The notes under the pieces: model-generated
What the model was told of the DNA's origin: nothing
Seen by the model: only the letters and a program-made list of their open reading frames with translations
The model's database searches: none
Shown: one piece after another, positions 19,161-63,762 of the stretch
Position numbering within the stretch: position 1 is the first letter of the stretch
Layout of the letters: every line of letters starts with the position of its first letter
Source: Owenia fusiformis
Taxonomy: Eukaryota
Direction: 5' to 3'
Assembly (NCBI GenBank): GCA_903813345.2
Contig: CAIIXF020000001.1
Location: forward strand, 13,206,001 to 13,270,000
DNA: 64,000 nucleotides
Made by a program: the position numbers and the translations under genes

Positions 19161-22100
19161 ATGAAATCTGGATATCAAAGGAAAAGTAAGTGGCGAGTGA
19201 TACTATATCTAGTATAGAAAATAAAAAGTTAGCAGTTTATGTTTTTAAGTAATAATAATAATTCTTTTGTCCACGTTTGTTTTTTCTGTTTTCAATGATT
19301 TGGAACTTGTAGATTACTTGATTGACCAAACTTACTCGAGTCTCTAGCCAATTCTAGGCTAGAGGTAATTTCATCTGGAATACTCCTTTTGAAAAAAGCT
19401 GGCCGGCGTGTCATAAAGGATAGGCATCGATATGGTGAACTGAATTCAACAATGTTTTTCTCTTTAACCAGTTATTGAGACCATTCTGTAAAAAACACGG
19501 TCCTTTATGTAATGCTGACTGACTGACTACAATTTAATGGAAAAATTATTTATATATTTATATTTTATATAACTGTTTTTGTTATTTTATATAACTGTTT
19601 TTGTTAACTTTCTTTTTAGTGAAATTGTTTTTTGTTCATAGACCTCTCAATATTATTGTTTTACAAAGGACATTTTGGTTGATTTAACAAAAAGCAAATC
19701 CCCCCAATCAGCCAAACTTTCCTTTATACAATTACAATATTGAGAGACCTAAACACGTTGTGTTTATGTCGTTTTGTTCCAATGAGGTTGGGATAGATGT
19801 TTCATTTCATTCCGAACATATGATACCAAGAACGAAAAAAGTGTCTGATGTGTTTTCTAAAACAATATAGATAAAAGAATATCATTAAATTGACGATGTG
19901 TGAAATTTTCAGAATGTTTTGATTACTGCTCTAAGAGAAACGCGTGTTCAAAAAGTTCACCATATCGATACCACTCCTTAATTGAATATTTTAAAAATCG
20001 CCTGATTTCGTCAGGATTTCGTCTATAATTAAAACAAAATGGCTCCAAAAAATGGCTAAATTCGAAAACTGGACGAAATGTCGTTAATGTCTGACATTAG
20101 TAAGTGGCTTTAAATTCTAAGTTAGCGATCCAAAAGATGTGAACTTATACATTGTTCACTTCATGTGTGTTTTGGAATTTTTGGTGAGGTAATAAGACCG
20201 AAACTCGCAAATTTGTGATGTGGAAAAATGGCGCACATTTGATTTCAAATTTTATGATTACGACATGACCCGTTATACATGCAGGAATTTATCGTTGGAA
20301 GGCCACGATACAGTGGCCTTAGAAGAAGGTAAGACCATACGGTTTAGATTGTTGCTTTTCAATGTTTTTTGGATCTTAGGTAATCTTCCCGTCAATGAAA
20401 AAACATTTGAATTTTCAAACTCATATCTTACTAAAAGTTAATAAAAAATGATAATCGTATGGCTATAGCTGGTACACTCCTATACACACTATATTTCAAT
20501 TCATCTGAAAGGGATTTTATTTCTGCCACATCTGGTATTGCAACGATTTATTTCAGTTCATATTTCAAAAGTATAATCAACTGACTTATCATTTGCGAAA
20601 TGATAATCGTATGGCTATAGCTGGTACACTCCTCTTCATAATTTTGGCAACCGGAAGTACCCTTTTTGCATCACTTATCCAAGCTTGTTTATGTATGATC
20701 ATTTGAAAAAAATCGTCAAAGTCATAAATTTCCGAACTATTGTAATTAACGAAAAACCCCGGTTGCCAAACTTATGGGGGGAGTACTGTATGATTTAAAC
20801 TGACATTATGACCATTCAAAATATACTAGAATGGCGATTTGACAAAAATCTGGCTAAAATATAGGACTGCATACTGTACATTTTAGGGTCATTGATACAA
20901 ACTGTAATCGTGGTACGGTCGGAACTGATTCTTTAGGTCGATCTTTTTGACTTTCCTTCAGGATAATATTAGAAACGCTTAATTTCAATATATTTCAATT
21001 CATCTGGAAGGGATTTTATTTCTGCCACATCTGGTTTTGCAACGATTTATTTCAGTTCATATTTCAAAAGTATAATCAACTGACTTATCATTTGCGTAGT
21101 TATATTGCTATAAATAAAAATGGCAATTAAAATAACGTCACATCGACTACGATTCTAATTAAAAGAAACAACAGGTGTTTTGGGGTTGTGACTCTTCTCC
21201 TCGAAATTGGACAGCTATATGTTGAATTAGAAATCTTCATCTTTCATTGTTATAGCAGCACGTAGACGGGTCAAGATGTCTTCATTTTTCATCCTCGGAT
21301 TGCCAAGAGGATACGGACTTTCTAGTTTGGGAGTACCCTTAGTCCTGACCCACGGAGCCACTAACTAGACGAAGCTGTAAAAGTACCAGAAGGGACAGTG
21401 TTATAAAATGCAATCTTATGAAAACATACCAATGCTTCCCTGACAATTCTAATTTTGTTTTCTGAATAAAAGATTCTGATCACACACAGATTACAGAAGC
21501 TATTGAAGATTTAAAGGCCCAATATAAAATTTAAAACACTTTGGCTTATATTGTAGTCTTACCCGTTATCAAAATGTAAAACCTTTTCCTAATTTCAAAA
21601 AGTGGATTTTGAAAGGCTCTTTGTTAGTAAAATAATGAATTTATTTAAAACTATCTGTTCAAAATTTTTAGAGGTGACATATTCAGGAAATAAAGATAAT
21701 AATGTCATAAATGAAAGTAAAAATAGACTATTTTGAGCACCTTTGAGCCAAATTAGTCAAATTTGAACTCCCTGGAATTCTTAAAATGTGAACCCACTTG
21801 ACAAAAGCTGGCTCCAGGCCTGATCCTTCTCATTTTTTCAGATTATTTATATACTCATTTATATAAGCCGAATCTTATTTTGAAATTTATTTTGAGATAT
21901 TAATTACCATGGTAATATTGCTTTGTAAAGATAATAAAATGAATTGTTGATTGTTTGCTTTCCAGAGGTGGCAGTTTGGATGATGACCAATATGCTCTTA
22001 ATGACTGGAGTGTCGAGCTCCAAGGATCGACAAGCGTTATTTGAGCGTTACCAGAATGGTCGGTCGACATTGTACCTATCTATCAGAGACAGTAATAGAA

Positions 22101-22366
22101 ATGATGACAACTTAAATTCAATACTCCAACCGATAGAATTAATTAAAAGAGATGATAAAACATTAGGAGGAACCATAGGAATGAACAAGCGAGATACGCT
22201 ATCTAACGACGATTTGTGTCATCTTGTTTGTTCTTATTGTAGTAAGCAATTGCCCAGACGCTGGTCGGGCACCTGCATCTCCGAATGTGAACAGATGCAC
22301 GATGGTGGAAGTACACGTGTTGGGAAATCTTATGCGAATTGTTTTTCTTTATTGTATGGCAAGTGA
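19161..22366 (+). CDS. Secreted Cys-rich prepropeptide (neuropeptide/hormone-like precursor), copy 1, 141 aa
   Basis: Exon 1 19161-19185 (ATGAAATCTGGATATCAAAGGAAAA|gtaag) plus exon 2 21966-22366 gives a signal peptide MKSGYQRKKVAVWMMTNMLLMTGVSS, two KR dibasic sites, a C-terminal C-x3-C-x2-C-x11-C-x3-C-x17-C peptide and a terminal YGK* amidation signal. Both exons are conserved in copy 2. Confidence 0.88.
20627..20784. mobile_element. Tc1/mariner-type MITE (same family as 18677-18891)
   Basis: TACACTCCTCTTCATAATTTTGGCAACCGG ... CCGGTTGCCAAACTTATGGGGGGAGT. Confidence 0.6.
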
Positions 22367-23555
22367 ATTGATTAATTCAAGGGATGAATTTTTATATTGT
22401 TTTGTCGATTTGATACCACATCAACACGCAAACAACACGCAAATACAGAAGAGTAATGGTATTCAAACGTAGGACACAAAACAATTGCATGTTCTAAATC
22501 GTTAAGAAAATGATTTCTTTTTTGATCCATAATTATTGTTATCAGTGCGATATTTCCTGTAATATAAAGCGATCCATCTTTTACTAACGAATAGCCAAGT
22601 ATGCATGCACCCATGCATATCTAACTCTTAGAAATTTAGGACTGGTTCAAGACTGGATATTATCATAAAAACTGTTCCATTGAATTTCTTTTTCAGTAAT
22701 GGTATTGTTAAAACTGTTTTGCAAACTGGGAAAAGGATTTGAGCTTATAGAACTCAAGACAGTTGGCAACTTATTGTCTTCGATTCTTGTATGCTAGCAT
22801 AAAGTCCTCGTTTCAAACTTCAAACAAGAATATCAGTGGACATTTCACAATCAGCTCATTAAATAATGTGCTCGAATTCCTTATCTTATCATGGATGTGA
22901 CTAAACTAATCTACATTGCATGTGAACGAAATTGAAGTTGTTTCTTCAAATAAAATTGCAACTTACAACTTACACTACTGATTCTTTCATTTCGTATTAT
23001 GCCAAGGTAGATGGTTTCAAATAATGAAACTACACAAACGGGACAATTTCATATTTTCCCAACTGAGTCCTACCAATTCAATGGAATTGTAGAGCAAGCC
23101 AAAATTTTCAAAAATACCTTAATTAAAAATCATTTAAGAACTGTTTAAGAACCCCTTTACTAAAATGGATTTAACCAATAGTTTCCCACAAGAATTTACT
23201 TGTTGAGACTCCATCAACTTGAGTTTTTCTGAGATAATGAAGATTTCGTATCTATCCCCATGCATGATATGCAGCTTTTAAGTCAAGCCCATGTTAAGTC
23301 AATTCATCCTGAAATCCTCAATGGAGACTTTAAGATGGTGATGTTTTCACAACGTAACCGCGAACGCAAAGTCCATTGATCAATTCAGAAATGCATATAG
23401 CGCGCATACAAAATGAGCGCTAATATTAGTCTACTTCAGATACCCGATCAGCTTCAGTTCAGTGTTTAGAACGGGAGATCTGCAATTTCACGTTGGTGTC
23501 AACAGGAATCATTAATGATTTAATGAGTATAAATACTCATGTCTACTGAATACTA

Positions 23556-35900: not shown

Positions 35901-37682
35901 AGATCTAGAAACACTTAATTTCAATATATTTCAATTTGTCTGGAAAGGATTTTATTTCCGCCACATTGGTATTGCAACGATTTATTTCAGTTCATATTTC
36001 AAAAGTATAATCAACTGACTTTGCATTTGCGTAGTTATATCGATATAAATAAAAATGGCAATTAAAATAACGTCACATCGACTACGATTCTAATTATAAA
36101 ATACGAAAGGAAATAACAGGTCATTTGTGGGTGTGGCAATTTTGCTCGAAATGTGGACAGTTGGAATCTGAATTAAAAATGTTGGAAGGAATCTTATAAA
36201 AACGTGCCAATGCCTCCCCTACGATCCTATTTTACTTTATTTTACGAAAAAAATAATGAGATACCTGGTCAAATGCAGAAGTTATATTGAAGATTTAAGA
36301 TACAAGAATGTCAAAATTGCTGGATACATCATGAAAATCAAAGGAATATCCTGAAATAAAGTCAGAATTTTGGGATTTCTTTTAAAAATAGGCACGAAGG
36401 ATGAACGTATAAAAATCGTAAAATACATTTTTCTTAAAGCGGCAACAAGGCCTGTAGGGAGAATTTTGTTCACTGTTTCTGAGCCATCAGGGCAAAGTTT
36501 GGCTTTTCAGCATTTAGTAAATTAAGTTTCCATAAGAGGAAACCCACTTATAGATTTTTAGATATACTACATTTCAAAATTTTAAGAGCAGGAATTTCAG
36601 CTGAAGTAACGTTCATTCACGGGGTTTCTTTATAGGTAATGAAAAAATGTTAGCCTCGATGAACTATCCCAACTTTATATTTTGACACAGGTTCCATGAT
36701 CATTGGGTACGTCTCTGTATTCTCAAAATTCATTTCGTTCATTGCGTACCTTCACTACCTGGTAAGTACAGAAGGCACGGATTGCACTGAACGAAGGCTA
36801 GGAGACTGACGTCTCTGCACTATTTGTTCAACCTTTAAAGGTGCAATAATTAGTGCAGGGGGGCATTCAATGATCATCAACCAATGTCAAAATATATTTA
36901 AGTTTGGATATTTCATCACGACTAACATATATTTTTATCATCTACAAAGAAACCCCCTGGATGAACATTATTTCAGCTGATATTCTTCTTGAAACGCGGT
37001 GAATCTTAAAAATCTGTAAGTGGGACTCCATTTAAAGAATTTGAATTTTCTCTCTACAGTCCTTGTTGCCCTCTTACTAAAGTCGTCCCCTTCTTCTCAT
37101 TTCAAAGAAGCGGAAATACTGTGAGAAATGGAAGACTAGGATGTGATATGTTGCTATGATATAAATTGTATAATTATTTATTTTCCAGAGGTGGCAGTTT
37201 GGATGATAAGCATCATGCTCTTCGTAAATGGAGTATCGAGCTCCAAGGATCAACAAGCGTTATTTGAGCGTTACCAGAATGGTGGGGACTTTGGCGAAAA
37301 CTCCTTAAATCAGCAACACAATATACGGTCCGCATTGAATCAGCAACACAATATACGGTCCACATTGAATCAGCAACACAATATACGGTCCACATTTTAC
37401 TTATCTATTAGACACAGTAACAGAAATGACGACAACTTGGATTCAATACTCCAGCCTCTAGAACTGATCAAAAGAGCAGACAAAACAATAGGGGGAATTA
37501 TAGGAATCACAAGCAAGCGAGATACACTATCTAATGATGATATGTGTCATCTTGTTTGTTCTTATTGCGCTGAGCAACTTGGCAGACGCTGGGCAGCTCT
37601 CTGCATCTTTGAATGTGAAAGTGGCAACGGCGGAAACTCATATGATAATTGTTTTTCCTTATGGCAAGTGACGATCAATTAA
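29990..37682 (+). CDS. Secreted Cys-rich prepropeptide, copy 2, 172 aa
   Basis: Exon 1 29990-30014 (the same 25 coding nt as copy 1, followed by gtaagt) plus exon 2 37189-37682. Signal peptide, three 10-aa LNQQHNIRS(A/T) repeats, two KR sites, C-x3-C-x2-C-x11-C-x3-C-x11-C. Confidence 0.88.
34088..34653. mobile_element. Short-IR plus terminal hairpin element (Crypton-like)
   Basis: TTTATCCCATAC ... GTATGGGATAAA inverted repeats, then a ~150-bp hairpin centred on CCCTCGGGACCTGCGGCCCTCGGG. Confidence 0.6.
34651..35092. mobile_element. Short-IR plus terminal hairpin element (Crypton-like) with internal 21-bp repeats
   Basis: TTTATCCTATGCCAAGTAGAGTTTCAGGG ... CCCTGAAAACTCTACTTGGTATAGGATAAA, internal GCATATCTTCCCGCTTCCGGT repeats, then a hairpin GTTATGTAC...GTACATAAC. 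Related to 49538-50102. Confidence 0.6.
36585..36992. mobile_element. MITE with ~120-bp imperfect TIRs
   Basis: ...TTTCAGCTGAAGTAACGTTCATTCACGGGGTTTCTTT... mirrored by ...AAAGAAACCCCCTGGATGAACATTATTTCAGCTGA... Confidence 0.6.
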
Positions 37683-37970
37683 TTCCAGGATTGAATTTGC
37701 AGTGGTCCAATTTTTATTTTTGATATTGTTTATTCATTGTTGGATGAAGAACTGTACTCCCGGTAAATTTCAACGCTATAAAATTTCTCGATTTTTCAAA
37801 ATTGCAATTTCGCGGGTGTTAAATTTCGCGGCTATTAAATTTCGTTGAGTTGAGTTGATGACATTTCGCGGATTGCACAATTTGAATTTTTCCCCACGCT
37901 CTGTAAACTCCAGTTCTATTCAAGAATAATGCCATGCCTAGTTTTTGGCCTTTTAAAAAAAATATAGAAA

Positions 37971-38131
37971 AGTAGATAGAAAACTGAGGGCATCAGAACG
38001 CCACGGGCCGCCACGGGCCCGGGGCTTTCAAAATCTCTGAAGATGAGCAGGAGATATTGATGAGCAGGAGATAAATTAATTGAATGGGGATTAGGAGATA
38101 AATTAATTGGATGGGGCTTTCATCTTAAATG
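37971..38131 (+). repeat. Left terminal inverted repeat (161 bp)
   Basis: Exact reverse complement of 45978-46138. Contains the doubled motifs CGCCACGGGC, GATGAGCAGGAGATA and GGAGATAAATTAATTG. Confidence 0.95.
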
Positions 38132-38728
38132 TGTAAAAAATGTTAGATAAGATGCGCATGACATCATTGTTATCTTAAATGGGCGAGAAATGTATTTCTT
38201 GGACTGAATGTCTTTAGTAAAGTACAAAATAAATCCCTTTAATATTATTTTAAATTTGGTATAATCCATTAACAGTGTTTACAATTCTACTTTCAATATT
38301 AACCCAACATTGAAAAGAATCAACAATCCTATTGAGTTGGTCAAACAAATACTGTTCGCATAAAAGGAAAGAGAACTGGATTTTGGATTAAATGTAAGTA
38401 CAGATGAAAAGGTTTATTTATTTAAGTCCTATATTGAATGGACCGTTGAAAAGGTTTATTTATTTAAGTTCTATATTGAATTGACCATTTGATCTTACTC
38501 TACTTGATTTCAACAATAATGGTCTTTTAATGTAATAATTGAATGTTGACATTTAACTGTGTCATCACAATGTTAATCCTTCATATTCTAGAACATCTTT
38601 TGTTTAATGTGTTAATCTTTTTTTTCTAGAATAATCTAGAGTATATGACATCATCATTTCATGACTTAAGTTTCTTAAAAAATGCATGACATCATGCCCT
38701 AAAATAGAATTTGACATCATTTTTACCA

Positions 38729-38822
38729 TATAAAAATCTCCAAAAAGTGTGTGGACCATTTATGAACATGGTAGTAAACAACTGGTGATTTAGACATATC
38801 TGTATGCTTGTTTAAGGTAAGT
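38729..38822 (+). promoter_or_regulatory. Putative Pol II promoter and non-coding first exon of the element's left transcription unit
   Basis: TATAAAAA at 38729, Inr-like CCATTT 29 nt downstream, a strong donor AAG|GTAAGT at 38817, and a candidate acceptor TTATCATTAG ending 40013, 10 nt before ATG 40024. Confidence 0.5.
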
Positions 38823-39035
38823 CCTAAATATTCTGTACATGATATTCAATAACACAACATCTAACATGCAGTAGGATCATATATGTTCCAATGTCTTTGA
38901 TTAGTTGTTATATATGAATTGTATTTTATGTAAATAATTTCATTGAAATTGAGGGTAAATAATTTAGTAGAAATTGAGAGAATTTAGCATTGTGACATGG
39001 TCGAATACTTTAATTATCATGTACAAATATTCTTT

Positions 39036-39905
39036 GATGTTCACAAGTATTGTTCACAAATGTTCACTGATGTTCACAAATGTTCACTAGTTTTGTTCAC
39101 AAATGTTCACTAGTATTGTTCACAAATGTTCACTGATGTTCACAAATGTTCACTAGTATTGTTCACAAATGTTCACTAGTATTGTTCATAAATGTTCACA
39201 AATGTTCACTAGTATTGTTCACAAATGTTCACTGATGTTCACAAATGTTCACTAGTATTGTTCACAAATGTTCACTAGTATTGTTCATAAATGTTCACAA
39301 ATGTTCACTAGTAATGTTCACAAATGTTCACTAGTATTGTTCACAAATGTTCACTAGTATTGTTCATAAATGTTCACAAATGTTCACTAGTAATGTTCAC
39401 AAATGTTCACTAGTAATGTTCACAAATGTTCACTAGTATTGTTCACAAATGTTCACTGATGTTCACAAATGTTCACTGATGTTCACTAGTATTGTTCACA
39501 AATGTTCACAAATGTTCACAAATGTTCACTGATGTTCACTAGTATTGTTCACAAATGTTCACTAGTATTGTTCACAAATGTTCACTGATGTTCACAAATG
39601 TTTACTGATGTTCACTAGTATTGTTCACAAATGTTCACAAATGTTCACTAGTATTGTTCACTGATGTTCACAAATGTTCACAAATGTTCACAAATGTTCA
39701 CTGATGTTCACTAGTATTGTTCACAAATGTTCACAAATGTTCACAAATGTTCACTGATGTTCACTAGTATTGTTCACAAATGTTCACTAGTATTGTTCAC
39801 AAATGTTCACTGATGTTCACAAATGTTTACTGATGTTCACTAGTATTGTTCACAAATGTTCACTAGTATTGTTCACAAATGTTCACTGATGTTCACAAAT
39901 GTTCA
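39036..39905. repeat. Compound minisatellite with a TGTTCAC core inside the Polinton-like element
   Basis: ~870 bp of interspersed TGTTCACAAA, TGTTCACTGA and TGTTCACTAGTAT units. Confidence 0.95.
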
Positions 39906-40023
39906 ATAAATATTCACTTATGTATTACATCAACATTCATCTAAATTTATAGCATGGTTTGATTATTTAACAAGGATACCTCAAACATACTATCATTTAA
40001 CTGTTATCATTAGACGAGTCAAC

Positions 40024-41631
40024 ATGTCTAAAATTTCTTCTTATTCTTGTGAGTGTGGAAAGACATTTAGTCATGCAACCAGTATGTATCGTCATAAAAG
40101 AATAGACCATGCATTGCAGAAAAGCATCATAAAGTCACCTAATATACAACATGACATGGGAATTTATTCAACAATTCCAACTATTACGTCAACAGATTCA
40201 AAAGTGCTCTACCATCCATTTACTATGATGGTGGTTGGACCGACAGGTTCAGGAAAATCTACATATATAAAGGAATTGATTGACCATGCTGATACTACAA
40301 TATCTCCAACACCGCAACGTATCATATGGTGTTACAGTCAATGGCAACCTCTTTATGACATCATCAAAACAATCAATTCAAATATTGAATTCATGATGGG
40401 AATACCAGACGAATTGAGTAACCCAGATTTTTTAGATGTGAATCAGAGGAACTTGGTGATCTTTGATGATTTAATGGGTGATATAACAAAAGATACAAGG
40501 ATTGCTGATTTGTATACACGTGGATCACATCATAGAAATTTAAGTGTCATTTGCTTGATGCAGAATTTGTTCCCATGTGGTAGAGAAAGTCGGACTATGA
40601 GTTTAAATTCCCACTACATTGTGTTGTATAAGAACCCAAGAGATAGGCAACAAATATCTGTTTTGGCTCATCAAATGTATCCTGGGAAGTCTCACAAGTT
40701 ATTGGATGCATATGAAAAGGCTACACATCAACCTTTCAGCTACTTGTTAGTAGACCTCAAGCAAGAAACTCCTGAAAGTATGAGATTGTATAATCCTTCC
40801 ACAACTTCAAATATAATGCTTCAAAAACCATTATCAAAACAAAGTCTGAACAGAGGAATACAATCACAACAAGTTGAAAGTAATGGAAATATACCTAATC
40901 ATGTGGTATCAGAAACACCTCAATTAAATGCAAAGGATACAATTATGTATGATATGAAAAATGGAACGTCACCTTATTCCTCTCATTGTGGATGTGACGA
41001 TATGGTCTCATGTGATGACTGTGGTTTAGTCTTTGAGAGTATTCATGATTTGCAACATCATGTTAAAAATTGGTGTCATGGTCATCCGACCAAGAAAATG
41101 AAGATTGAAACCAATGCACAAACAAATAAAGAAGAAGAAGATGATGATCTCAGATTAAATGAAACATTTGTATATTTAAAGAACCTGGCTAGAAATGATA
41201 ATGAAAAGGATTATGATCATAAAGTAAAGGAGTATATAGATAGGGGAAACAATGAAAAGGAGGCTATAGAAAAGGCTGAGAAGAAACTTGTACAAATGGA
41301 TAAGGAAATATTCATGAAGCACTATAAGAAGGTCTTAAAACAAGTATTTGGTTTAGCAGACAATGTATTACACAGAAATATTGTAGATGAAGTAAATGAT
41401 ATGTTAATGAGAGGTGTCTCTAGAGATCTTGCAATCAGAAAGATACTTGTGAAAAATGAACATAAGTTTAGTGAGCTATTTATAGATACAGATGAAGAAG
41501 ACAATTCAGATGAAGAATCTACTGATGAAGAAAAGTCTGATAATTATGATGAAAGCAATGCTAATGAAGAATTTACTGATGAAGAACAATATTATAATCA
41601 AGATGAAAGCAATTCTGAAAGTAGCAGTTGA
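40024..41631 (+). CDS. A32/FtsK-like genome-packaging ATPase fused to two zinc-finger motifs and an acidic tail (535 aa)
   Basis: Walker A GPTGSGKST, Walker B LVIFDD, and RGSHHRNLSVICLMQ and SRTMSLNSHYIVLYKNPRD motifs typical of Polinton ATPases. N-terminal CECGKTF...HKRIDH and internal CDDCGLVF...HHVKNWC. D/E-rich C-terminus. Confidence 0.92.
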   Translation: MSKISSYSCECGKTFSHATSMYRHKRIDHALQKSIIKSPNIQHDMGIYSTIPTITSTDSKVLYHPFTMMVVGPTGSGKSTYIKELIDHADTTISPTPQRIIWCYSQWQPLYDIIKTINSNIEFMMGIPDELSNPDFLDVNQRNLVIFDDLMGDITKDTRIADLYTRGSHHRNLSVICLMQNLFPCGRESRTMSLNSHYIVLYKNPRDRQQISVLAHQMYPGKSHKLLDAYEKATHQPFSYLLVDLKQETPESMRLYNPSTTSNIMLQKPLSKQSLNRGIQSQQVESNGNIPNHVVSETPQLNAKDTIMYDMKNGTSPYSSHCGCDDMVSCDDCGLVFESIHDLQHHVKNWCHGHPTKKMKIETNAQTNKEEEDDDLRLNETFVYLKNLARNDNEKDYDHKVKEYIDRGNNEKEAIEKAEKKLVQMDKEIFMKHYKKVLKQVFGLADNVLHRNIVDEVNDMLMRGVSRDLAIRKILVKNEHKFSELFIDTDEEDNSDEESTDEEKSDNYDESNANEEFTDEEQYYNQDESNSESSS

Positions 41632-41693
41632 TATATATATATGTATAATTTCAATACCTGGGACATTATTAAAATATACGTCTATGAGGAAAG

Positions 41694-42791
41694 ATGTCTT
41701 GGAAAGAATATGTAGAAAAGAATTATTATGATACTTCTAAACCAGCAAGTTTTAGTGGACCTAAAAAATTACAGAGAACTTTACAAAAAGTTGGATTTGA
41801 TGTATCATACTACCAAGTCAAAAAATGGTTGGATAGTCAGGAAGCTTATAGTCTACAAAGACCATATAGAAGACGGTTTCGGCGTAACAAAGTGTACGTG
41901 TCTTACATTGATCAACAATGGGATGCTGATTTAATGGATGTCTCTAATATGTCATCTGAGAATGATGGGATACGTTTTATTTTAGTTGTCATTGATATCA
42001 TGTCCCGGTTTGCATTTGTCAGACCACTTAAGAATAAAACTGGACAAGCTGTAGCAGATGCATTTGATGATATCTTTAAAGAAGGGAGAGTACCAGATGT
42101 AATACGTAGTGATGCTGGTCAAGAATTCCGTGCAAAACGTGTACAGACATTGTTACGCAGATGGGGAGTGCGTCATTTTGTTACGCGTAATACTTCCAAG
42201 GCAAATTACTCTGAACGTTTTATTAAGACATTGAAGACGAAAATAATGAGATACATCACATATAAACAAAATCTTAGATATATTGATAATTTACAGGACT
42301 TTGTCAAAAGCTATAATGCTACACATCATAGAAGTATTAAAAAAGCACCCCAAGATGTCTCTAAAGATGATGAGCTTAATATTTGGTGGCGTATGTATTA
42401 TCCTAAATCAATAATAAAAAGTCAAACCAAATCCAAGCAAATTTTCAAATTCCCTATTGGAGCTCAGGTTAGAATTACACAAGCAAGGCATGTTTTTACC
42501 AGAGAATATGATCAACATTGGACTGGAGAGATTTTCAAAATAGCTGCTCGATTCATCAGACAAGGTCTACCTCTATATCGCTTGAAAGATTTTGAAGGTG
42601 AAGAGATTAAAGGAACATTTTATCAACCTGAGCTTCAACGTGTGCATATTGATGAAGACAATCTATATAAAATAGAAAAAGTTTTAAAACAACGCACAAA
42701 ACAAGGTCAAAAAGAATACTTGGTACATTGGAAATATTGGCCTAAGAAATTTGATTCTTGGGTTAAAGCTACGGATATCAAAACCTTTTAA
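41694..42791 (+). CDS. Retroviral-like DDE integrase with C-terminal chromodomain (365 aa)
   Basis: Catalytic triad in QWDADLMD / IRSDAGQEF / YSERFIKTLK, YNATHHRSIKKAP, W-T-G-E-I-F, GTFYQPELQ, and chromodomain YKIEKVLKQR...EYLVHWKYWPKKFDSWV. Polinton-type integrase. Confidence 0.95.
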   Translation: MSWKEYVEKNYYDTSKPASFSGPKKLQRTLQKVGFDVSYYQVKKWLDSQEAYSLQRPYRRRFRRNKVYVSYIDQQWDADLMDVSNMSSENDGIRFILVVIDIMSRFAFVRPLKNKTGQAVADAFDDIFKEGRVPDVIRSDAGQEFRAKRVQTLLRRWGVRHFVTRNTSKANYSERFIKTLKTKIMRYITYKQNLRYIDNLQDFVKSYNATHHRSIKKAPQDVSKDDELNIWWRMYYPKSIIKSQTKSKQIFKFPIGAQVRITQARHVFTREYDQHWTGEIFKIAARFIRQGLPLYRLKDFEGEEIKGTFYQPELQRVHIDEDNLYKIEKVLKQRTKQGQKEYLVHWKYWPKKFDSWVKATDIKTF

Positions 42792-42810
42792 TATTGTATA
42801 TTATACTTAA

Positions 42811-42816
42811 AATAAA
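42811..42816 (+). terminator. Putative polyadenylation signal after the integrase
   Basis: AATAAA 20 nt after the integrase stop, followed by a T/GT-rich tract. TATATAAA at 42850 precedes the next ORF. Confidence 0.5.
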
Positions 42817-42890
42817 TAGAAAAACATTATTTTATGTTATGTTGATATTTATATAAATGTTGAAGTACATCTCATTTTTGTTATTTAGCA

Positions 42891-43190
42891 ATGAAGTATC
42901 AAAGTGTGAGGTTCTACTGTATATTAGTACATATTTTTAAAGTGCTATTGGCAGAAGAAAATGCAACATCATTAGCACGAATAAGTGCTTCAACACCTTC
43001 AAATATATTAGCAATTGAAGAAATATCAATTAGTAATTTAGCAATTGGATCTACAAGTGTTTCATTTATGATATTGATGTTTTATTATCTGAAAAAACAA
43101 AAGCATGACTATAATATAACAAAGTTTGCAAAGTTATATGAGATAATACAAAAATCAAATAGTGACACAGACTTTAGTACATCAGTTTAA
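42891..43190 (+). CDS. Small predicted membrane protein of unknown function (99 aa)
   Basis: Hydrophobic N-terminus (FYCILVHIFKVLLA), NAT sequon, second hydrophobic segment (LAIGSTSVSFMILMFYYL) followed by KKQKH. It fills the space between a TATA box and the penton ATG. Confidence 0.65.
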   Translation: MKYQSVRFYCILVHIFKVLLAEENATSLARISASTPSNILAIEEISISNLAIGSTSVSFMILMFYYLKKQKHDYNITKFAKLYEIIQKSNSDTDFSTSV

Positions 43191-43193
43191 ACA

Positions 43194-43610
43194 ATGGATA
43201 AAGACATCTATTTTTATTTAAGTAGCACTGATTCAACCAATATTTATCCCAATAATACAGCATCAGAGTTTACTGTAAAGTTACCAAGATACTTTTATCT
43301 TAAAGGAAAATGGAAAATAGGACTTGTTGACATACAGTTACCACCATTGGATTCAAATGATGCATTATTGTATTTAGATGTGTTTTGTGATTTATGCATA
43401 GAAAGTGTTGTTGATGGAAATGTACAACCAATCTTAAGGCGTATTCCAAAGGATTATTCTTGGTTGAGTTTTAATCAAGTATTATACAAGGATGTCGGGA
43501 ATTGGGAGTTTGATCGCATACATGTCTATATAAGAGGAAATGGTAACACACTTGTGTCATTTAAAGACAAACCTTTGACGTGTACACTTCATTTGAAACA
43601 AGTATCATGA
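43194..43610 (+). CDS. Minor capsid (penton, single jelly-roll) protein, short form (138 aa)
   Basis: N-terminal YFYLSSTDSTNIYPNNTASEFTVKLP...LKGKWKIGLVDIQLP and C-terminal LRRI...YKDV...FDRIHVYI...CTLHLK resemble the Polinton minor capsid signature. Confidence 0.85.
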   Translation: MDKDIYFYLSSTDSTNIYPNNTASEFTVKLPRYFYLKGKWKIGLVDIQLPPLDSNDALLYLDVFCDLCIESVVDGNVQPILRRIPKDYSWLSFNQVLYKDVGNWEFDRIHVYIRGNGNTLVSFKDKPLTCTLHLKQVS

Positions 43611-43972
43611 AATTAGTACCATATGTAGACAGACCAGAACACTGGTTGAAACTTATTAGAGCTGGTAGACAGAATAGATTGAAAGTATCTCAAACAGGAA
43701 GAGGTTGGATAAGTGAAGATGATATTAAAGATGAACCGAAACAAATAATATCTCCAATGCAAGCTGTCGTTGAGAGAGCAAAAGCTACACTTAAAAGACA
43801 GCACTCAAACGAGTCACACGAGTCACACGAGTCAAACGAGTCACGTGATACAATTAGAAAGAAAAAACGTGTATATAAAAGCAAACGCAATAGTAAGTCT
43901 TCAGTCAATAAGAAATCTCCACAGGAATACAAACGTAGGTCAACAAAGACATCACAGAAAAGAAAAAAGTAA
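43607..43972 (+). CDS. Basic core/DNA-condensing protein (pVII-like, 121 aa)
   Basis: The ATG overlaps the penton stop (ATGA). Q-T-G-R-G candidate protease site, ISPMQAVVERAKATLKR helix and a very K/R-rich C-terminus. Lies between the penton and the major capsid. Confidence 0.7.
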   Translation: MKLVPYVDRPEHWLKLIRAGRQNRLKVSQTGRGWISEDDIKDEPKQIISPMQAVVERAKATLKRQHSNESHESHESNESRDTIRKKKRVYKSKRNSKSSVNKKSPQEYKRRSTKTSQKRKK

Positions 43973-43993
43973 ATTCAACTCAAATAATTAAAA

Positions 43994-45340
43994 ATGGCAT
44001 ATAAACTCATGAACAGTGCTGATGTAATGAATGGGAAATTACAGTTATTTAACACACCTCCAACAGAAAGTAGTGTTGTTAGAAGGAACTATGTTGAGTA
44101 CAGACCTATCAATCCAATAGACAGTGAGTCTCCAATAGAGTTCATCTTACCAAACAACACTTCACAGTTTATAGATCTTCAAAATGTAAAGCTATCTGTC
44201 AAAGCGCAGGTATTGAAAGCAGATAATTCATTACCGAAATATGTGGATTTGACAGATTATGATTCATATGGACCAATAAATAATTGGATTCATTCTTTAT
44301 GGAGTGAGGTTGAGATATCATTACAACAAAATAACATGGCATCATCTGTCTTAAACTATCCTTATAAAAGTATGTTGAAAACATTGTTAACATCTAGTAA
44401 AGGAAAATTAGAATCTGAAGGTACGGCATGTCTGTTTTATATGGACAGTGGGATATATCCACCTAATGGAATGGATGCAACAAAACCTCTGGGACAAGGC
44501 TCTAACAACATGGGACTAACACAAAGATTTGTGAAAACTCAAGGTGGAAAAGTAGTTGATATGGAATGTAAATTTCATGAAGATATCTTCAGCATCAACA
44601 AATACCTCATTAATGGTGTTGAAGTGAAGATAAAACTAAATCATACAAAAAACAGTTTTAGACTTATGACTGATTCAAATGAACAATATAAAGTCAAACT
44701 TTTAGATGTACATTTAGAAGTTCCAATGATTACAGTTTCAAATGGTATTTTACAAGCATATAATACTGAATTACAGGAGAGAAATGCTGTATATACTTAT
44801 GATAGAAATGAAATGAAAGTACTCTCATTACCTAGTAATATATATTCTTTTAATCAAGATGATTTATTTCAAGGACGTGTACCTACACGATTGTATTGTG
44901 TCATTGTGAAAAATGCAGCATATCAAGGAAACTATAAACTTAATCCTTACAATTTCATTCATGCAAACACTTCATATGTTGAAATTTCAGTAGATAATGT
45001 CCCTACTCCATTTAGAGCATTTCAACCTAAGTTTGGCTCAAATGATTCACAAGACAAATATGTTCATGAGTTTACACAATTGTTTTCAGATCTTGAACAC
45101 AATGATGGGTTAAATATAAGCATAGATGATTTTAAATCTGGTTTTTGTATCTTTAAGTTTGATATAGGCTATAAAGACACATATTCAAATGGTGAAATTC
45201 TTCCATTGTTTAAAAAGGGAAATGTAAAACTTGACATTCATTTTTCTGAGGCAACACCTGAATCATTAAACATTATTTTAATGGCAACATTTCCGGGAAA
45301 ATTTGAGGTTGACGCATCCCGCAATATTATTCAGTACTAA
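43994..45340 (+). CDS. Major capsid protein (double jelly-roll, Polinton PY/hexon-like, 448 aa)
   Basis: LQLFNTPPTESSV...YVEYRPINPIDSESPIEF...FIDLQN, GPINNWIHSLWSEVEISL, NYPYK, KYLINGVEVKIKL, LFQGRVPTRL and GNYKLNPYNF are characteristic of Polinton MCPs. Confidence 0.93.
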   Translation: MAYKLMNSADVMNGKLQLFNTPPTESSVVRRNYVEYRPINPIDSESPIEFILPNNTSQFIDLQNVKLSVKAQVLKADNSLPKYVDLTDYDSYGPINNWIHSLWSEVEISLQQNNMASSVLNYPYKSMLKTLLTSSKGKLESEGTACLFYMDSGIYPPNGMDATKPLGQGSNNMGLTQRFVKTQGGKVVDMECKFHEDIFSINKYLINGVEVKIKLNHTKNSFRLMTDSNEQYKVKLLDVHLEVPMITVSNGILQAYNTELQERNAVYTYDRNEMKVLSLPSNIYSFNQDDLFQGRVPTRLYCVIVKNAAYQGNYKLNPYNFIHANTSYVEISVDNVPTPFRAFQPKFGSNDSQDKYVHEFTQLFSDLEHNDGLNISIDDFKSGFCIFKFDIGYKDTYSNGEILPLFKKGNVKLDIHFSEATPESLNIILMATFPGKFEVDASRNIIQY

Positions 45341-45341
45341 T

Positions 45342-45788
45342 ATGAATTCACAAGATATAAGTTTTATTTTATCAAATCATCCAGATACTAAGCATAGATT
45401 TCTAGGAGTATTTGCAAGTGATCAATTACCATCTATTATCATGGATAAAAAATGTTTTATAGCAAATACTAGACCTCACTATGAAATGGGGCAACATTGG
45501 GTATGTTATTATAGAGATTCACAAATTGAATTTTTTGACCCCTTAGGTCATACAGAAACATTTTATGGATTAAAAGAATATGGAGATGCAATGTTTGTAA
45601 ATCCCATTCGTGTTCAAGGTTTGAACAGTTCAAATTGTGGACAATATTGTATCATGTATATATTATTGAGAACTTTAGGGTATAGTTTAGATGAAATTGT
45701 AAACACTTTCAGTGTGTCTAATAACATGGATTTTGTAGTAGAATCTATCATTTCTACCTTAAAAATGTTAATATTACATCAATTGTAA
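45342..45788 (+). CDS. Adenain/Ulp1-like cysteine protease for virion maturation (148 aa)
   Basis: FLGVFASDQLP, catalytic His in GQHWV, Asp in EFFDPLG, Gln/Cys in VQGLNSSNCGQYC. The ATG lies 1 nt after the MCP stop. Confidence 0.92.
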   Translation: MNSQDISFILSNHPDTKHRFLGVFASDQLPSIIMDKKCFIANTRPHYEMGQHWVCYYRDSQIEFFDPLGHTETFYGLKEYGDAMFVNPIRVQGLNSSNCGQYCIMYILLRTLGYSLDEIVNTFSVSNNMDFVVESIISTLKMLILHQL

Positions 45789-45800
45789 AGAAAATTGTAA

Positions 45801-45806
45801 AATAAA
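45801..45806 (+). terminator. Putative polyadenylation signal of the structural-gene block
   Basis: AATAAA 13 nt after the protease stop, with a GT-rich tract downstream. Confidence 0.5.
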
Positions 45807-45977
45807 TTTAAGATTGGATATAATGTATATATCAAACAAAAATGTTGTGTTATTGATTTGTTATGCTTCCATTTTAAAATTCAGTCCTCACCCATTTAGA
45901 TAACAATGATGTCATGCGCATCTTATCTCTCACCAATTTAAGATAACAATGATGTCATGCGTATCTTATCTCTCACC

Positions 45978-46138
45978 CATTTAAGATGAAAGCCCCATCC
46001 AATTAATTTATCTCCTAATCCCCATTCAATTAATTTATCTCCTGCTCATCAATATCTCCTGCTCATCTTCAGAGATTTTGAAAGCCCCGGGCCCGTGGCG
46101 GCCCGTGGCGTTCTGATGCCCTCAGTTTTCTATCTACT
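45978..46138 (-). repeat. Right terminal inverted repeat (161 bp)
   Basis: Exact reverse complement of 37971-38131. Preceded by two ~42-bp subterminal repeats (45891-45977) matching a single copy at 38145-38183. Confidence 0.95.
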
Positions 46139-48014
46139 TAGAAACATATCAAAATCCCGGGTAAATGCTAATTTAACGAATCCCCGGGGATTTAAAAGAC
46201 ACATTTCGCGACGATAAATGTTCGCAATTTTACCACGATCGCGAACAAAGCGAAATTAAAACGCACGCGAACAATTCTGCGAGTACAGTAGCTTGATACC
46301 ACATCAACACGCAGACAATTACACAAATTCAGAAGAGTAATAGTGTATTCTAACTTAGGATACAAAATTTCTAAATAGCAATCCATCTTTTATCAATGAA
46401 TAGACAAGAATGTGCCTGTGCATGTCTTCAGAAGTGTTGAGACATTGAGAACTGGTTGTGGGCTGGATATAATCCTAAAAAAGAGTTTCCTTGAATTTAT
46501 TTCTCAGTAACGATATTGTAAACTGTTTTGCTAATTGTGAAAGGATTTAAGCATAGGACTCAAGAAATTGTTGGCAATTTTGAATGCTAACATTAAAGTC
46601 CACGTTTTTAACATTAAACAAAAAAAGAATGTCATTTGATATTTCACCATCAGCTCATTAAATAGCTATAGTGCGATTGGATTCATTTTCTTACCATGGA
46701 CGTGCCTTATTTAATTCAACTTACATGTGTACGAAATTGAAGTTGTTTCTTCAAATAAATTGTAACTTACGACTTGCACTTCTGATTCTTTCATGTCGTA
46801 TTGTGTCAAGGTCGATGGTTGCAAAATATTGTAAAATTTTGAGACTTCAAATTGGGCAGTTTCCTTTTTGCCCAAAGAAGTTCCACCAATTTAATGCAAA
46901 TATGGTGATGTTATATGCAACGCTTCTTTTGTGGAACCAATTGACTTACGACAAGGTGGGGCCATATTTTGAAATATTTGGTCCCAAACAAAAAATGATC
47001 CTCCCTGACAACCCAGTGTGTCCTCGTATATAATTGACACATAGTAAAAATTGATGATCTAATGATTTTGGAGAACCTTGTTCTTTAACACTATTTGTTT
47101 ATTTTTGAAGTTTACCATATTTAGAAAAGATTAACATAGAAAAAATTTAATTTTTCAAAATGTTCTTACCACCTGAATGATGTCACGATGATATCACTTA
47201 GGTTGCAAATATTTAGATTTAAATATTTGAGAAATAAAAAGGTGACAACTTTCTCCATTCATTTTCTATTTCAAAAAATCTCTAAATTGCTTTTAAAGTC
47301 ATGAAAACAGTTAAAATGAATGTACAAAGTTGTTGATTTTCGTTCTATGAAAGAATGATGATGGACATGATGATGATGATGATGGACATCCTACGAAACG
47401 TCAAAAAGAAAAAGAAATATCTCTGAGAAAGAAAATCAACAACTTTGTACATTACTACCAGAGAGATGAACATTCATAGAAGTAAATGAATGATAAAAAC
47501 ATATTTTCAAACTTCACATAGGGCCTTTAAGAACTTACATAAAAAATTATAAAATACCAAAGAGAGTCTTTATAATGTGTCTCTCATATTAGGGAAATCT
47601 AGATATATCCCTTACTTGTATTTATATATATTCTACTTGTACATACTTCATAGTTTGAGAAAAGTTATAGTAAAATCTCACAATTAGCCTTTTTTCGACG
47701 AACTTTAAAAGTAAACGCGAGGTTTCAAAATCTTTCTATTATATCTCATGGGCTCTTAAGATCTTGTATTGCTCACATATATCATGAATAACTGTAGATA
47801 AAGACAGCTTATATGTATTTACGATCAGTCTGTTAAATCCTATATGTAACTTGATATAATGTCCACAATAAACTTTTCACTTTTCTCGAAAGTTTTATCG
47901 AAAAAGGTGTGATAGTATAATCTTGTCTCATAAATTTATGAGTACTCGTCGATGATAAGATAAAGGGCGTTAATAAGATACTCAATAGTTTTGATTTGTA
48001 ACATCGAAACTATA

Positions 48015-48182: not shown

Positions 48183-48561
48183 TATTATGTTTCAAAGTAT
48201 ATAAGAAACACATCTGGAATAAGGATACCTTAATTAAGAGCAGGTTTAGTACTTAACCATTCCCCAAATACCAAAAGTTTTATAGTTTGACTTGTACATT
48301 TGCAAAATGTTTACAGTTACTTGAGGAACTTCGAGTACCCACTGTAAGGACTTACATGTCATGATTTACACGTCTCTGAATATTATACTTGACAATTTGT
48401 CAGATCAGTAACAATACTAAGTCTACTGAACAACAAGAGGTTAATGGTACATCGGCTTAGCTGAAACTGGAGTACTACACAGACTCTCTGTACAGTGCAC
48501 ATGTGTGGAGTTGAGCATTGGCAATTCGTATGAGTCCTGTTGGGTGAAGAAAGACGCAAAG

Positions 48562-63762
<15,201 letters not shown>

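Follow-up and report, generated by a model that had tools for sequence, protein, structure and literature searches.

Polintons/Mavericks (polintoviruses and adintovirus-like elements) usually measure 15-25 kb, and AG..CT ends are characteristic of them. They are thought to be viruses although, to our knowledge, no one has observed particles of them, or their replication, in animals. Ordinary non-autonomous derivatives of DNA transposons lose most of their coding capacity, and the virophage mavirus depends on a giant virus for its transcription. Mavirus encodes a pPolB-derived polymerase of its own, and the same source describes Polinton-like viruses (PLVs) as mostly without pPolB and mostly without an rve integrase, with a helicase-primase or an S1H-pPolB derivative as replicase (PMC11161782). 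A 6-bp target site duplication (TSD) and a long terminal inverted repeat (TIR) are named as typical of Polintons/Mavericks (PMC3014272). In Pieris mannii, polinton variants which lack polB, are flanked by TIRs and appear to have remained mobile after the loss are described in the Pannagram preprint (10.1101/2025.02.07.637071).

In a 64-kb stretch of Owenia fusiformis DNA (the window), we analysed an 8.2-kb element (37971-46138) that starts with AG and ends with CT. It resembles Polintons/Mavericks, including the viral contig L001 and 80 further relatives, in its TIRs, its AG..CT ends and its 6-bp TSD, and shares with them an rve-chromo integrase, an A32-type ATPase, a single jelly roll (SJR) penton, a double jelly roll (DJR) MCP and an adenain protease, with gene order and strand unchanged. 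It differs in that it is without pPolB, in its size of 8.2 kb against about 12 kb (L001) or the usual 15-25 kb, and in a non-coding stretch with a minisatellite at the position of pPolB. Its ATPase is a multi-domain protein of 535 aa with two zinc fingers, and its MCP has only about 30% identity to the L001 group.

Like the P. mannii variants described in the preprint, the element is TIR-flanked and retains capsid, packaging and integrase genes while polB is gone. The earlier note on this DNA had called such a loss the reverse of the usual decay, and this precedent (10.1101/2025.02.07.637071) means that the novelty was overstated. As far as the preprint describes it, polB loss in P. mannii goes with LINE/LTR cargo, whereas the gap in our element consists of non-coding DNA and the minisatellite; more complete, polB-bearing siblings are shown there in the same genome, and none lies in the 64-kb window analysed here. 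Its host, judged by the nearest proteins, belongs to an animal group other than the butterfly. The element shares with PLVs a small genome and the module of DJR MCP, penton and ATPase, but it has an rve integrase and no replicase whatever, either of the PLV type or of another. With virophages such as mavirus, and with satellite viruses, it would share its own capsid, an rve integrase and borrowed machinery, if the helper reading given below is right; the predicted folds of its penton and MCP match those of mavirus and Sputnik. In contrast to mavirus, its dependence is presumed, and the helper would be a sibling Polinton. MITE-like, internally deleted DNA transposons also keep their termini and have lost the enzyme of propagation, but most of their coding capacity is gone, whereas here seven intact ORFs are retained and only the polymerase is missing.

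Structure and gene content of the element

The features of the element are as follows.
37965-37970, no strand: left TSD copy, TAGAAA, 6 bp
37971-38131, plus strand: left TIR, 161 bp, perfect, begins AG, with short direct repeats inside
38132-40023, plus strand: non-coding left part, 1.9 kb, occupying the pPolB position of collinear relatives
38145-38191, plus strand: subterminal repeat, 34-47 nt, one copy of a palindrome-like unit AGATAA..TGACATCAT..TTATCT
39037-39917, no strand: minisatellite, 880 bp, ATGTTCACAA-based, periods 10/23/76 nt, higher-order units 23/33/76 nt
40024-41631, plus strand: packaging ATPase, 535 aa, Pfam match Pox_A32/IVa2, 47% identity to the L001 ATPase (core)
41694-42791, plus strand: rve (DDE) integrase with C-terminal chromodomain, 365 aa, 38% identity to the L001 integrase
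42891-43190, plus strand: putative gene, 99-aa ORF with a hydrophobic stretch (ORF listing)
43194-43610, plus strand: penton (minor capsid) protein, 138 aa, single jelly roll (homologs and predicted fold)
43607-43972, plus strand: lysine/arginine-rich ORF, 121 aa, candidate core/DNA-condensing protein
43994-45340, plus strand: MCP, 448 aa, double jelly roll (predicted structure and fold search)
45342-45788, plus strand: adenain-like cysteine protease, 148 aa, Pfam Peptidase_C5, 32% identity to the L001 protease
45887-45987, minus strand: right subterminal repeat, 43 nt, 2.4 copies, inverted counterpart of 38145-38191
45978-46138, minus strand: right TIR, 161 bp, perfect, ends CT
46139-46144, no strand: right TSD copy, TAGAAA

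Sequence comparison confirmed the AG...CT ends, the identical 161-bp TIRs and the exact TAGAAA duplication that the earlier note had reported; beyond 161 bp the TIR match continues imperfectly, out to about 38191/45925. The insertion site is a high-copy host repeat, other copies of which have a single TAGAAA, and a read contig joins 37946 directly to 46139. A search with the 30-nt terminus gave two matches in the window, against none expected; these were the two element ends, and no sequence with these termini was found elsewhere in the 64 kb. The element is a real, freshly inserted virus-like transposon, which probably used its rve-chromo integrase and left a 6-bp duplication. The structural reading of the earlier note is supported: a Polinton-type element that is intact, was inserted recently and has an integrase and all of the virion module, but not pPolB.

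All seven ATG ORFs run in one orientation, are intact, and lie in the ORF listing where the earlier note had placed them, uninterrupted. Its labels for the ATPase, integrase-chromo protein, penton, MCP and protease were upheld by Pfam or fold matches, while 'TM protein' and 'core' are tentative labels drawn from composition. In the ATPase, an A32/FtsK-type P-loop core is accompanied by two C2H2 fingers, one N-terminal and one inner, by a helical C-terminal domain and by an acidic tail; this multi-domain architecture is native to the lineage. The integrase matched PF00665 (E 7.6e-12) and Chromo (E 2.4e-8), as in Polintons. For the penton, 1329 homologs were found, most of 130-150 aa, and its model (pLDDT 95.4) gave Z scores of 14.0 against a capsid chain of PBCV-1, 12.2 against the pentons of Sputnik and mavirus and 10.0 against the adenovirus penton base. 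The MCP has 15 sequence homologs at up to 38% identity; a fold search with its model (pLDDT 80, pTM 0.83) retrieved the Sputnik, PBCV-1, SGIV and mavirus MCPs at E ~1e-14, the best match being a Cotesia bracovirus protein (E 3e-27). The element therefore carries the whole Polinton morphogenesis module of DJR MCP, SJR penton, A32/FtsK ATPase and adenain-like protease.

The 99-aa ORF gave no match in Pfam or in a further family search, and the 121-aa ORF gave none in family or atlas searches. Read contigs show that other copies carry an in-frame 3-nt insertion in the former, a weak hint that it codes, and an in-frame 9-nt length variant in the latter; all three ORF indels among the listed copy variants are multiples of three. 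The ATPase ORF holds 28 of the 40 variants listed (202 in all), 6 synonymous and 22 non-synonymous. With 302 synonymous and 1303 non-synonymous sites this split is about neutral, and selection on the gene was not detected from these 28 variants, among 40 of the 202. RNA reads from two runs cover the element at trace level (depth 0-2.7), most of them being just 90-95% alike.

The polymerase position and the collinear relatives

In agreement with the earlier note, the non-coding left part (38132-40023) has no stop-to-stop frame of at least 60 aa on either strand, the longest being 52 and 51 aa. Three TGACATCAT motifs at 38646-38720 lie immediately 5' of TATAAAAA at 38729-38736, and this stretch (38646-38736) may be the promoter region of the ATPase gene. 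A candidate 5'UTR intron possibly runs from GTAAGT at 38817 to a ..TCATTAG ending at 40013. The length of the minisatellite array differs among read contigs, with joints at 39072->39645 and 39268->39440.

In order to look for pPolB, the 12 pPolBs chosen as queries (that of L001 and 11 zinc-finger pPolBs) were compared with the whole 64-kb window by tblastn, and outside the zinc-finger matches none fell below E 0.03. When 38132-40023 was scored with a profile built from 79 pPolBs, the maximum was 2.1 bits. A weak pPolB-like trace lies at 38983-39126; it has 30.8 bits, where reversed queries reach 25.0, and just 2.1 bits by profile. This trace, together with the branching of read contigs near 38727 described below, makes the earlier note's reading of no visible deletion scar a tentative one. 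No replication domain was detected by Pfam in the seven ORFs, and the element holds no further ORF. The earlier statement that pPolB is missing holds for the element and the window by tblastn, which the earlier note had proposed for the left part, and for the left part by profile as well; by this gene the element departs from the Polintons/Mavericks. We infer that it cannot copy itself.

The relatives inspected were one TIR-bounded viral contig, L001, and 80 metagenome contigs. L001 (12,321 bp) has inverted repeats as its own ends and the order pPolB (1146 aa), ATPase, two small ORFs, integrase/chromo, penton-like protein, small ORF, MCP and protease; its large ORF has at least 3548 homologs, many with a precomputed PF03175. 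The element keeps this order, with identities of 47% (ATPase), 38% (integrase), 31% (MCP) and 32% (protease). All 81 MCP-bearing loci are collinear with it over the parts they hold, and this collinearity and similarity to pPolB-bearing Polintons show its descent from the family. The closest proteins of the lineage are found in bivalve mollusc genomes.

The ATPase gene is present in 38 of the 81 loci, and pPolB in 20 of these 38. Of the 18 without it, one is a truncated copy and the other 17 break off before 1 kb of sequence upstream of the ATPase is reached. Three of the 17 match pPolB-bearing contigs at that place at 97-100% identity, and are therefore contig breaks. Among the 81 loci, pPolB is present in every relative that could be judged, and no intact polymerase-less relative was found. 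Nor was there a bipartite one: pPolB and capsid genes lie on one molecule wherever this could be judged.

Depth in sequencing reads and rival explanations

The element is present in 20 of 24 listed runs from six studies. Those contigs of run X1 that match 41602-45860 at 0-5 differences reach a depth of 502-557, against 62.9 and 58.9 for the unique flanks; in run X5 the same coding region has a depth of 64-72, against 4.1 and about 2. Near-identical element contigs thus reach about 8 times (X1) and 16 times (X5) the depth of the unique flanks in DNA runs of the same organism, a difference between the two runs of about two-fold or more; such summed depths are not copy numbers, and full-length siblings or extrachromosomal DNA may add to them. 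The non-coding left part of X5 (38159-38753) has a depth of 49-50, near that of the coding part. Near 38727 the read contigs branch, and at least three X5 contigs diverge leftward into other left contexts. An X5 contig over 38450-38753 (depth 49.9) extends about 27 nt beyond this branch, unbroken on its left side, as expected if a multi-copy left part continues into the ATPase promoter region. No single short-read contig joins left end, non-coding part and ATPase of a second copy, nor was a second target duplication seen; contigs of this kind bridge neither the minisatellite nor the TIR. The element is probably multi-copy in its polymerase-less form, and O. fusiformis apparently carries a small family of copies nearly identical to it. 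Movement as a unit, for which the earlier note had proposed a check, is favoured by this depth, while a whole second copy is unlinked in the short-read contigs.

A full-length insertion might instead have lost pPolB at this one locus, by deletion or by a rearrangement associated with the minisatellite, leaving an inert singleton; the read depth would then come from full-length siblings which share its coding and subterminal left sequence. The second copy unlinked across the minisatellite, the three or more other left contexts at 38727, the pPolB-like trace, which lies on the right strand and at the right position, and the pPolB of all judgeable relatives fit such an event. However, the X5 contig of depth 49.9 (flanks ~2-4) passes 38727 and suggests more than one copy of the junction itself, the perfect TIRs and seven intact ORFs would require the deletion to be very recent, and the trace scores just 2.1 bits by profile. 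We consider a one-off deletion rather unlikely. It is far less likely that the array is an assembly collapse with a polymerase gene present at the true locus. Although array length varies at the two joints mentioned and short-read contigs do not span it, the sequence on either side in the window is unique and continuous, no pPolB-like continuation leaves the array among 24 of 304 loose ends, and the profile found no pPolB fragment at its borders.

An independent life without a Polinton helper would rely on host replication, with cut-and-paste by the integrase or copying by host polymerases, and encapsidation as an option. Integrase and virion genes are intact beside no replication gene of any kind, and frequent turnover of the replication module is reported in this virus group (10.64898/2026.10.13.758929). 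All relatives judged have nevertheless kept pPolB, and the multi-copy state and the occupied donor site suit copy-out better than cut-out. Furthermore, we know of no mechanism by which an rve integrase, being of the retroviral type, would excise an integrated double-stranded copy. This explanation is improbable in our view. The least probable is a bipartite polintovirus, of which this would be one segment and a partner with pPolB under the same terminal repeats the other: the absence of pPolB and the intact termini are all that speaks for it, and the termini occur nowhere else in the window, nor does any of the 81 loci have a bipartite arrangement.

Proposed replication in trans and its significance

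Since the polymerase is missing, the element probably depends on a related element for copying. We lean towards the view that it is a pPolB-deletion derivative, which integrates and packages itself while a full-length relative replicates it in trans. In such a scheme, linear element DNA would be replicated from its terminal repeats by a pPolB with a terminal-protein domain, which a full-length relative present in that cell would provide in trans. The collinear, pPolB-bearing relatives, the read depth, the in-frame indels and the P. mannii precedent speak for this view; the about neutral split of the ATPase variants, the trace-level RNA reads, the other left contexts at 38727, the second copy unlinked in short-read contigs and the lack of an intact polymerase-less relative among the 81 loci speak against it. 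The copied DNA would then be packaged by the element's own capsid module, integrated by its own integrase, or both, making it a non-autonomous, satellite-like derivative. More tentatively, it might be a stable satellite polintovirus and not a decaying copy, which combines its own capsid and integration with a protein-priming polymerase that a sibling Polinton provides, their termini being shared or compatible. If so, copy number or episomal load would vary between individuals, and the element would be the animal-genome counterpart of virophage/helper and phage-satellite relationships.

For annotation, the finding means that screens keyed to pPolB miss intact, capsid-encoding Polinton derivatives. 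The element is also a natural system in which to ask whether matching termini are served in trans by a Polinton polymerase and whether particles mediate spread. Should the host contain no helper with these ends, the self-synthesising model would be called into question; should it contain one, the two would form a tractable satellite-helper pair among animal polintoviruses.

Structure and gene content of the element

The 8.2-kb element at 37971-46138 begins with AG and finishes with CT, and TAGAAA is found on either side. The structural description in the earlier note (inverted repeats, ends, TAGAAA duplication, seven ORFs and an ORF-poor left part) was found to match the sequence. Similarity between the terminal inverted repeats (TIRs) continues imperfectly beyond their perfect portion, reaching ~38191/45925. 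A search of the 64-kb window with the terminal 30 nt gave two sites only, the two element ends, where the chance expectation is none.

Main features of the element (window positions)
37971-38131 and 45978-46138, inverted: TIRs, perfect over 161 bp
38132-40023: non-coding left part, between the left TIR and the ATPase ORF
39037-39917: minisatellite of 880 bp, inside the non-coding left part
within 40024-45788, + strand: seven ORFs, each ATG-started

In the 1.9 kb from the left TIR to the first ORF, the longest stop-to-stop frame on either strand was 52 aa. Rfam and tRNA scans of 37000-47200, which takes in the element and its host-repeat flanks, gave no match. The 9-mer TGACATCAT was observed at 38159, 38646, 38687, 38712, 40356, 45906 (-), 45949 (-) and 47177 (-); this amounts to 8 sites in the window against 1.39 expected, 7 of them inside the element. 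Three clustered copies lie directly upstream of a TATAAAAA box at 38729-38736, and each subterminal repeat unit holds one copy, oriented inward at either end of the element. A role of the 9-mer as a cis element is possible, either in transcription or as a site for an element-encoded DNA-binding protein. Additionally, we noticed a candidate 5'UTR intron (38817-40013) which would enclose the entire minisatellite; its donor, AAG/GTAAGT, is at 38816/38817 and its acceptor, TTATCATTAG, ends at 40013, 10 nt 5' of the ATPase ATG.

Among the gene labels proposed earlier from the sequence alone, ATPase, integrase, penton, major capsid protein (MCP) and protease were borne out by Pfam or by fold, while 'TM protein' and 'core' were guesses with no relatives behind them; the 99-aa and 121-aa ORFs had no recognisable relatives in Pfam or the protein atlas. 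In Pfam, ORF 1 matched the A32/IVa2 packaging ATPase together with two C2H2 fingers, ORF 2 the rve integrase with a C-terminal chromodomain, and ORF 7 the adenovirus-type cysteine protease. Read by eye, the ATPase translation shows a Walker A motif (GPTGSGKS) and a Walker B motif (LVIFDD), the integrase translation shows D..D..E, and that of the protease shows H..D/E..Q..C. The MCP (448 aa) has only 15 database homologs, at identities of 38% or less. Its fold, predicted with 14 homologs, gave a confident model (pLDDT 80, pTM 0.83). At E ~1e-14 this model matched double-jelly-roll capsid proteins from Sputnik, PBCV-1, an iridovirus and mavirus, and its best match among predicted viral structures was a Cotesia bracovirus protein (E 3e-27). 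The penton (138 aa) has 1329 homologs at E <=0.001, almost all of 130-150 aa, and was modelled as a single jelly roll (pLDDT 95) matching a PBCV-1 capsid chain (Z 14.0), the Sputnik and mavirus pentons (Z 12.2) and the adenovirus penton base (Z 10.0), with which Foldseek concurs. On the strength of these family and fold matches, the virion module and the integrase are real and uninterrupted.

The missing polymerase and collinear relatives

The absence of a protein-primed polymerase (pPolB) claimed in the earlier note was upheld, since tblastn with 12 pPolBs over the whole window returned zinc-finger matches and one weak trace only. A profile of 79 pPolBs run over the non-coding left part reached a maximum of 2.1 bits. 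At the edge of the minisatellite, 38983-39126 (+) is weakly similar to the sequence surrounding polymerase motif C; by tblastn this trace scored at most 30.8 bits and was the best match in the non-coding part for 30 of the 79 pPolB queries, as compared with 25.0 bits for reversed queries and 2.1 bits for the profile. Elsewhere in the window, tandem coding-like repeats at 60970-62540 gave recurrent weak tblastn matches (<=27 bits) to one short pPolB segment. We rejected them as a polymerase, the similarity looking instead like a chance effect of low complexity. We also considered whether the ATPase carries, in its N-terminal zinc finger, a fusion scar left by the N-terminus of a zinc-finger pPolB. 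This was rejected because relatives have the whole architecture: ATPases of 477-509 aa, at 39-41% identity, share a finger-ATPase-finger-helical-acidic arrangement and are encoded on large eukaryote contigs as well as being found among the database proteins of Mya arenaria, Pecten maximus and Mizuhopecten yessoensis.

Among relatives whose genomic context could be inspected, the closest is L001, a viral contig of 12,321 bp whose own ends are inverted repeats. Its first gene, an ORF of 1146 aa, is followed in order by the ATPase, a pair of small ORFs, integrase-chromo, a protein of 255 aa with an N-terminus similar to the penton of the element, another small ORF, MCP and protease. The 1146-aa ORF is a pPolB, with at least 3548 homologs, many of them with precomputed PF03175; exonuclease and polymerase motifs can also be recognised in it by eye.

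Single-protein and ATPase-profile searches of viral contigs found no relative. Metagenome relatives were collected using a profile from a narrower MCP alignment, which yielded 80 loci with related MCPs, all collinear, or 81 loci together with L001. The ATPase is included in 38 of the 81, and 20 of these 38 also hold a pPolB, which lies immediately upstream in 17 (in one case inverted) and at the opposite end in 2; 2 are partly decayed. The upstream position corresponds to the non-coding left part of the element. As for the 18 ATPase loci without pPolB, 17 are on contigs that break off within 1 kb 5' of the ATPase, and the remaining one, L068, is a truncated copy. The possibility that contigs starting near the ATPase represent genome ends of polymerase-less relatives was rejected, since 3 of the 13 upstream stretches compared match pPolB-bearing contigs and terminal repeats were found at the ends of 0 of the 80 metagenome contigs. 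In the three loci concerned (L015, L033 and L070) the short upstream stretch shares 97-100% identity with intergenic DNA of pPolB-bearing contigs, so these are contig breaks and not genome ends. No intact polymerase-less relative was therefore found among the 81 loci. On the sequences compared, the preferred interpretation is that the element descends from an ancestor with pPolB and has lost that gene.

The pPolB is inverted upstream in L019 and lies inverted at the far end in L042 and L047. Since its place and orientation vary in these loci with respect to the capsid block, the polymerase module has apparently been rearranged repeatedly in the group. Decayed or 5'-truncated copies were also seen on longer metagenome contigs (L063 at 401-1555, L064 at 6-593, L068, L072 and L058), in which pPolB is partial (34-35% identity), the ATPase is truncated or the left half is absent. 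These are presumably old insertions in a host genome.

Insertion site and copies in the read data

The element is immediately flanked (~37751-37970 and ~46139-46275) by sequence of a host repeat of very high abundance, with a summed contig depth of ~1e4 in the DNA run X1; this repeat is also present in RNA reads, being transcribed elsewhere. Contigs from other copies of the host repeat cross the insertion point uninterrupted (joint 37946->46139) and have only one TAGAAA-like site there. In addition, 21939-23086 is a diverged paralogue (74-86% identity) of the flanks 37161-37698 and 46293-46899 which holds neither the host repeat nor the element. The read-through contigs and this element-free paralogue confirm an insertion with exact boundaries. 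Downstream of the element, a 232-aa open frame at 48445-49143 with a trefoil (P-type) domain (E 2e-11) is probably an exon of a host gene.

The element was present in 20 of the 24 runs listed of the source organism, from six studies; no RNA run was listed among the indexed runs holding it. Two DNA runs, as assembled contigs, and two RNA runs, as raw reads, were compared with the element and 1-kb flanks.

Contig depths in the two DNA runs
X1, unique flank contigs: 62.9 and 58.9
X1, element contigs (matching 41602-45860, 0-5 differences): 502-557
X5, unique flank contigs: 4.1 and ~2
X5, element contigs: 64-72
X5, non-coding left part (38159-38753): 49-50

Relative to the insertion site, the element is thus more abundant by several-fold to more than ten-fold, and this applies to its non-coding left part as well, although the depths of its contigs do not equal exact copy numbers and a share could be extrachromosomal. 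A joint 41634->42811 was observed in both DNA runs (depth 293.5 in X1 and 85.8 in X5), so some copies, at 41635-42810, lack the integrase gene or have a different one. Loose contig ends at 42380/42411 belong to a diverged integrase variant, and an internal deletion 38375->43606 occurs at low depth. In X5, the ATPase gene shows 19 differences over 707 nt as against 4-5 per 2 kb further right, and such unevenness along the element suggests mosaic subfamilies. In the same run, the summed depth over 41039-41716, the C-terminal part of the ATPase, was 488 against 64-72 elsewhere in the element, or ~7x; this stretch may be common to another, more abundant element family.

The 28 variants listed for the ATPase ORF, a small subset, comprise 6 synonymous and 22 non-synonymous changes, which is about neutral, and they give no sign of selection on this gene. 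The three ORF indels listed are all multiples of three. RNA over the element was a trace only in both runs (depth 0-2.7), most reads being 90-95% alike.

Probable helper dependence and classification

The element combines a complete virion module with no replicase. Its integration by a DDE integrase is consistent with the 6-bp duplication. For replication, the element could rely on a full-length relative which recognises the same termini and whose pPolB, with its terminal-protein domain, would act in trans; packaging and/or integration would then be carried out by the element's own proteins. We favour, as the probable reading, a non-autonomous and helper-dependent element.

The main rival to helper dependence is a one-off local deletion, with the observed depth contributed by full-length siblings. 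What bears on it is the assembly in X5, in which a contig over 38450-38753 extends ~27 nt beyond a branch point near 38727, and at least three other contigs diverge leftward at ~38727. The branch shows that other forms with different left contexts exist. The pattern is the one expected in a word-graph assembly if all left-part copies continue into the promoter-ATPase region and other elements join there, and it favours a polymerase-less junction present in multiple copies; we regard the one-off deletion as unlikely. Persistence of the element free of any helper appears distinctly improbable to us, an assembly collapse at the minisatellite still more so, and a bipartite genome is the one to which we give the least credence of all.

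The nearest described phenomenon comes from an insect pangenome preprint (10.1101/2025.02.07.637071), which, in the portion available, describes TIR-flanked polintons of Pieris mannii that have no polB, carry LINE or LTR cargo, are apparently still active and have polB-bearing siblings. They are one direct precedent for polymerase-less Polintons. The literature found on polymerase-less or non-autonomous Polintons contained none from molluscs and none with pPolB replaced solely by non-coding DNA, though supplementary files may list some. PLVs, in the accessible text of PMC11161782, are mostly without an integrase and have another replicase, whereas the element has an integrase and no replicase and, on that description, is not a PLV. 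According to the excerpted definition in PMC5499653, a Polinton encodes pPolB and the rve integrase; the element departs from this in pPolB and agrees in everything else. It is a Polinton derivative by descent, and not an autonomous member of the group.
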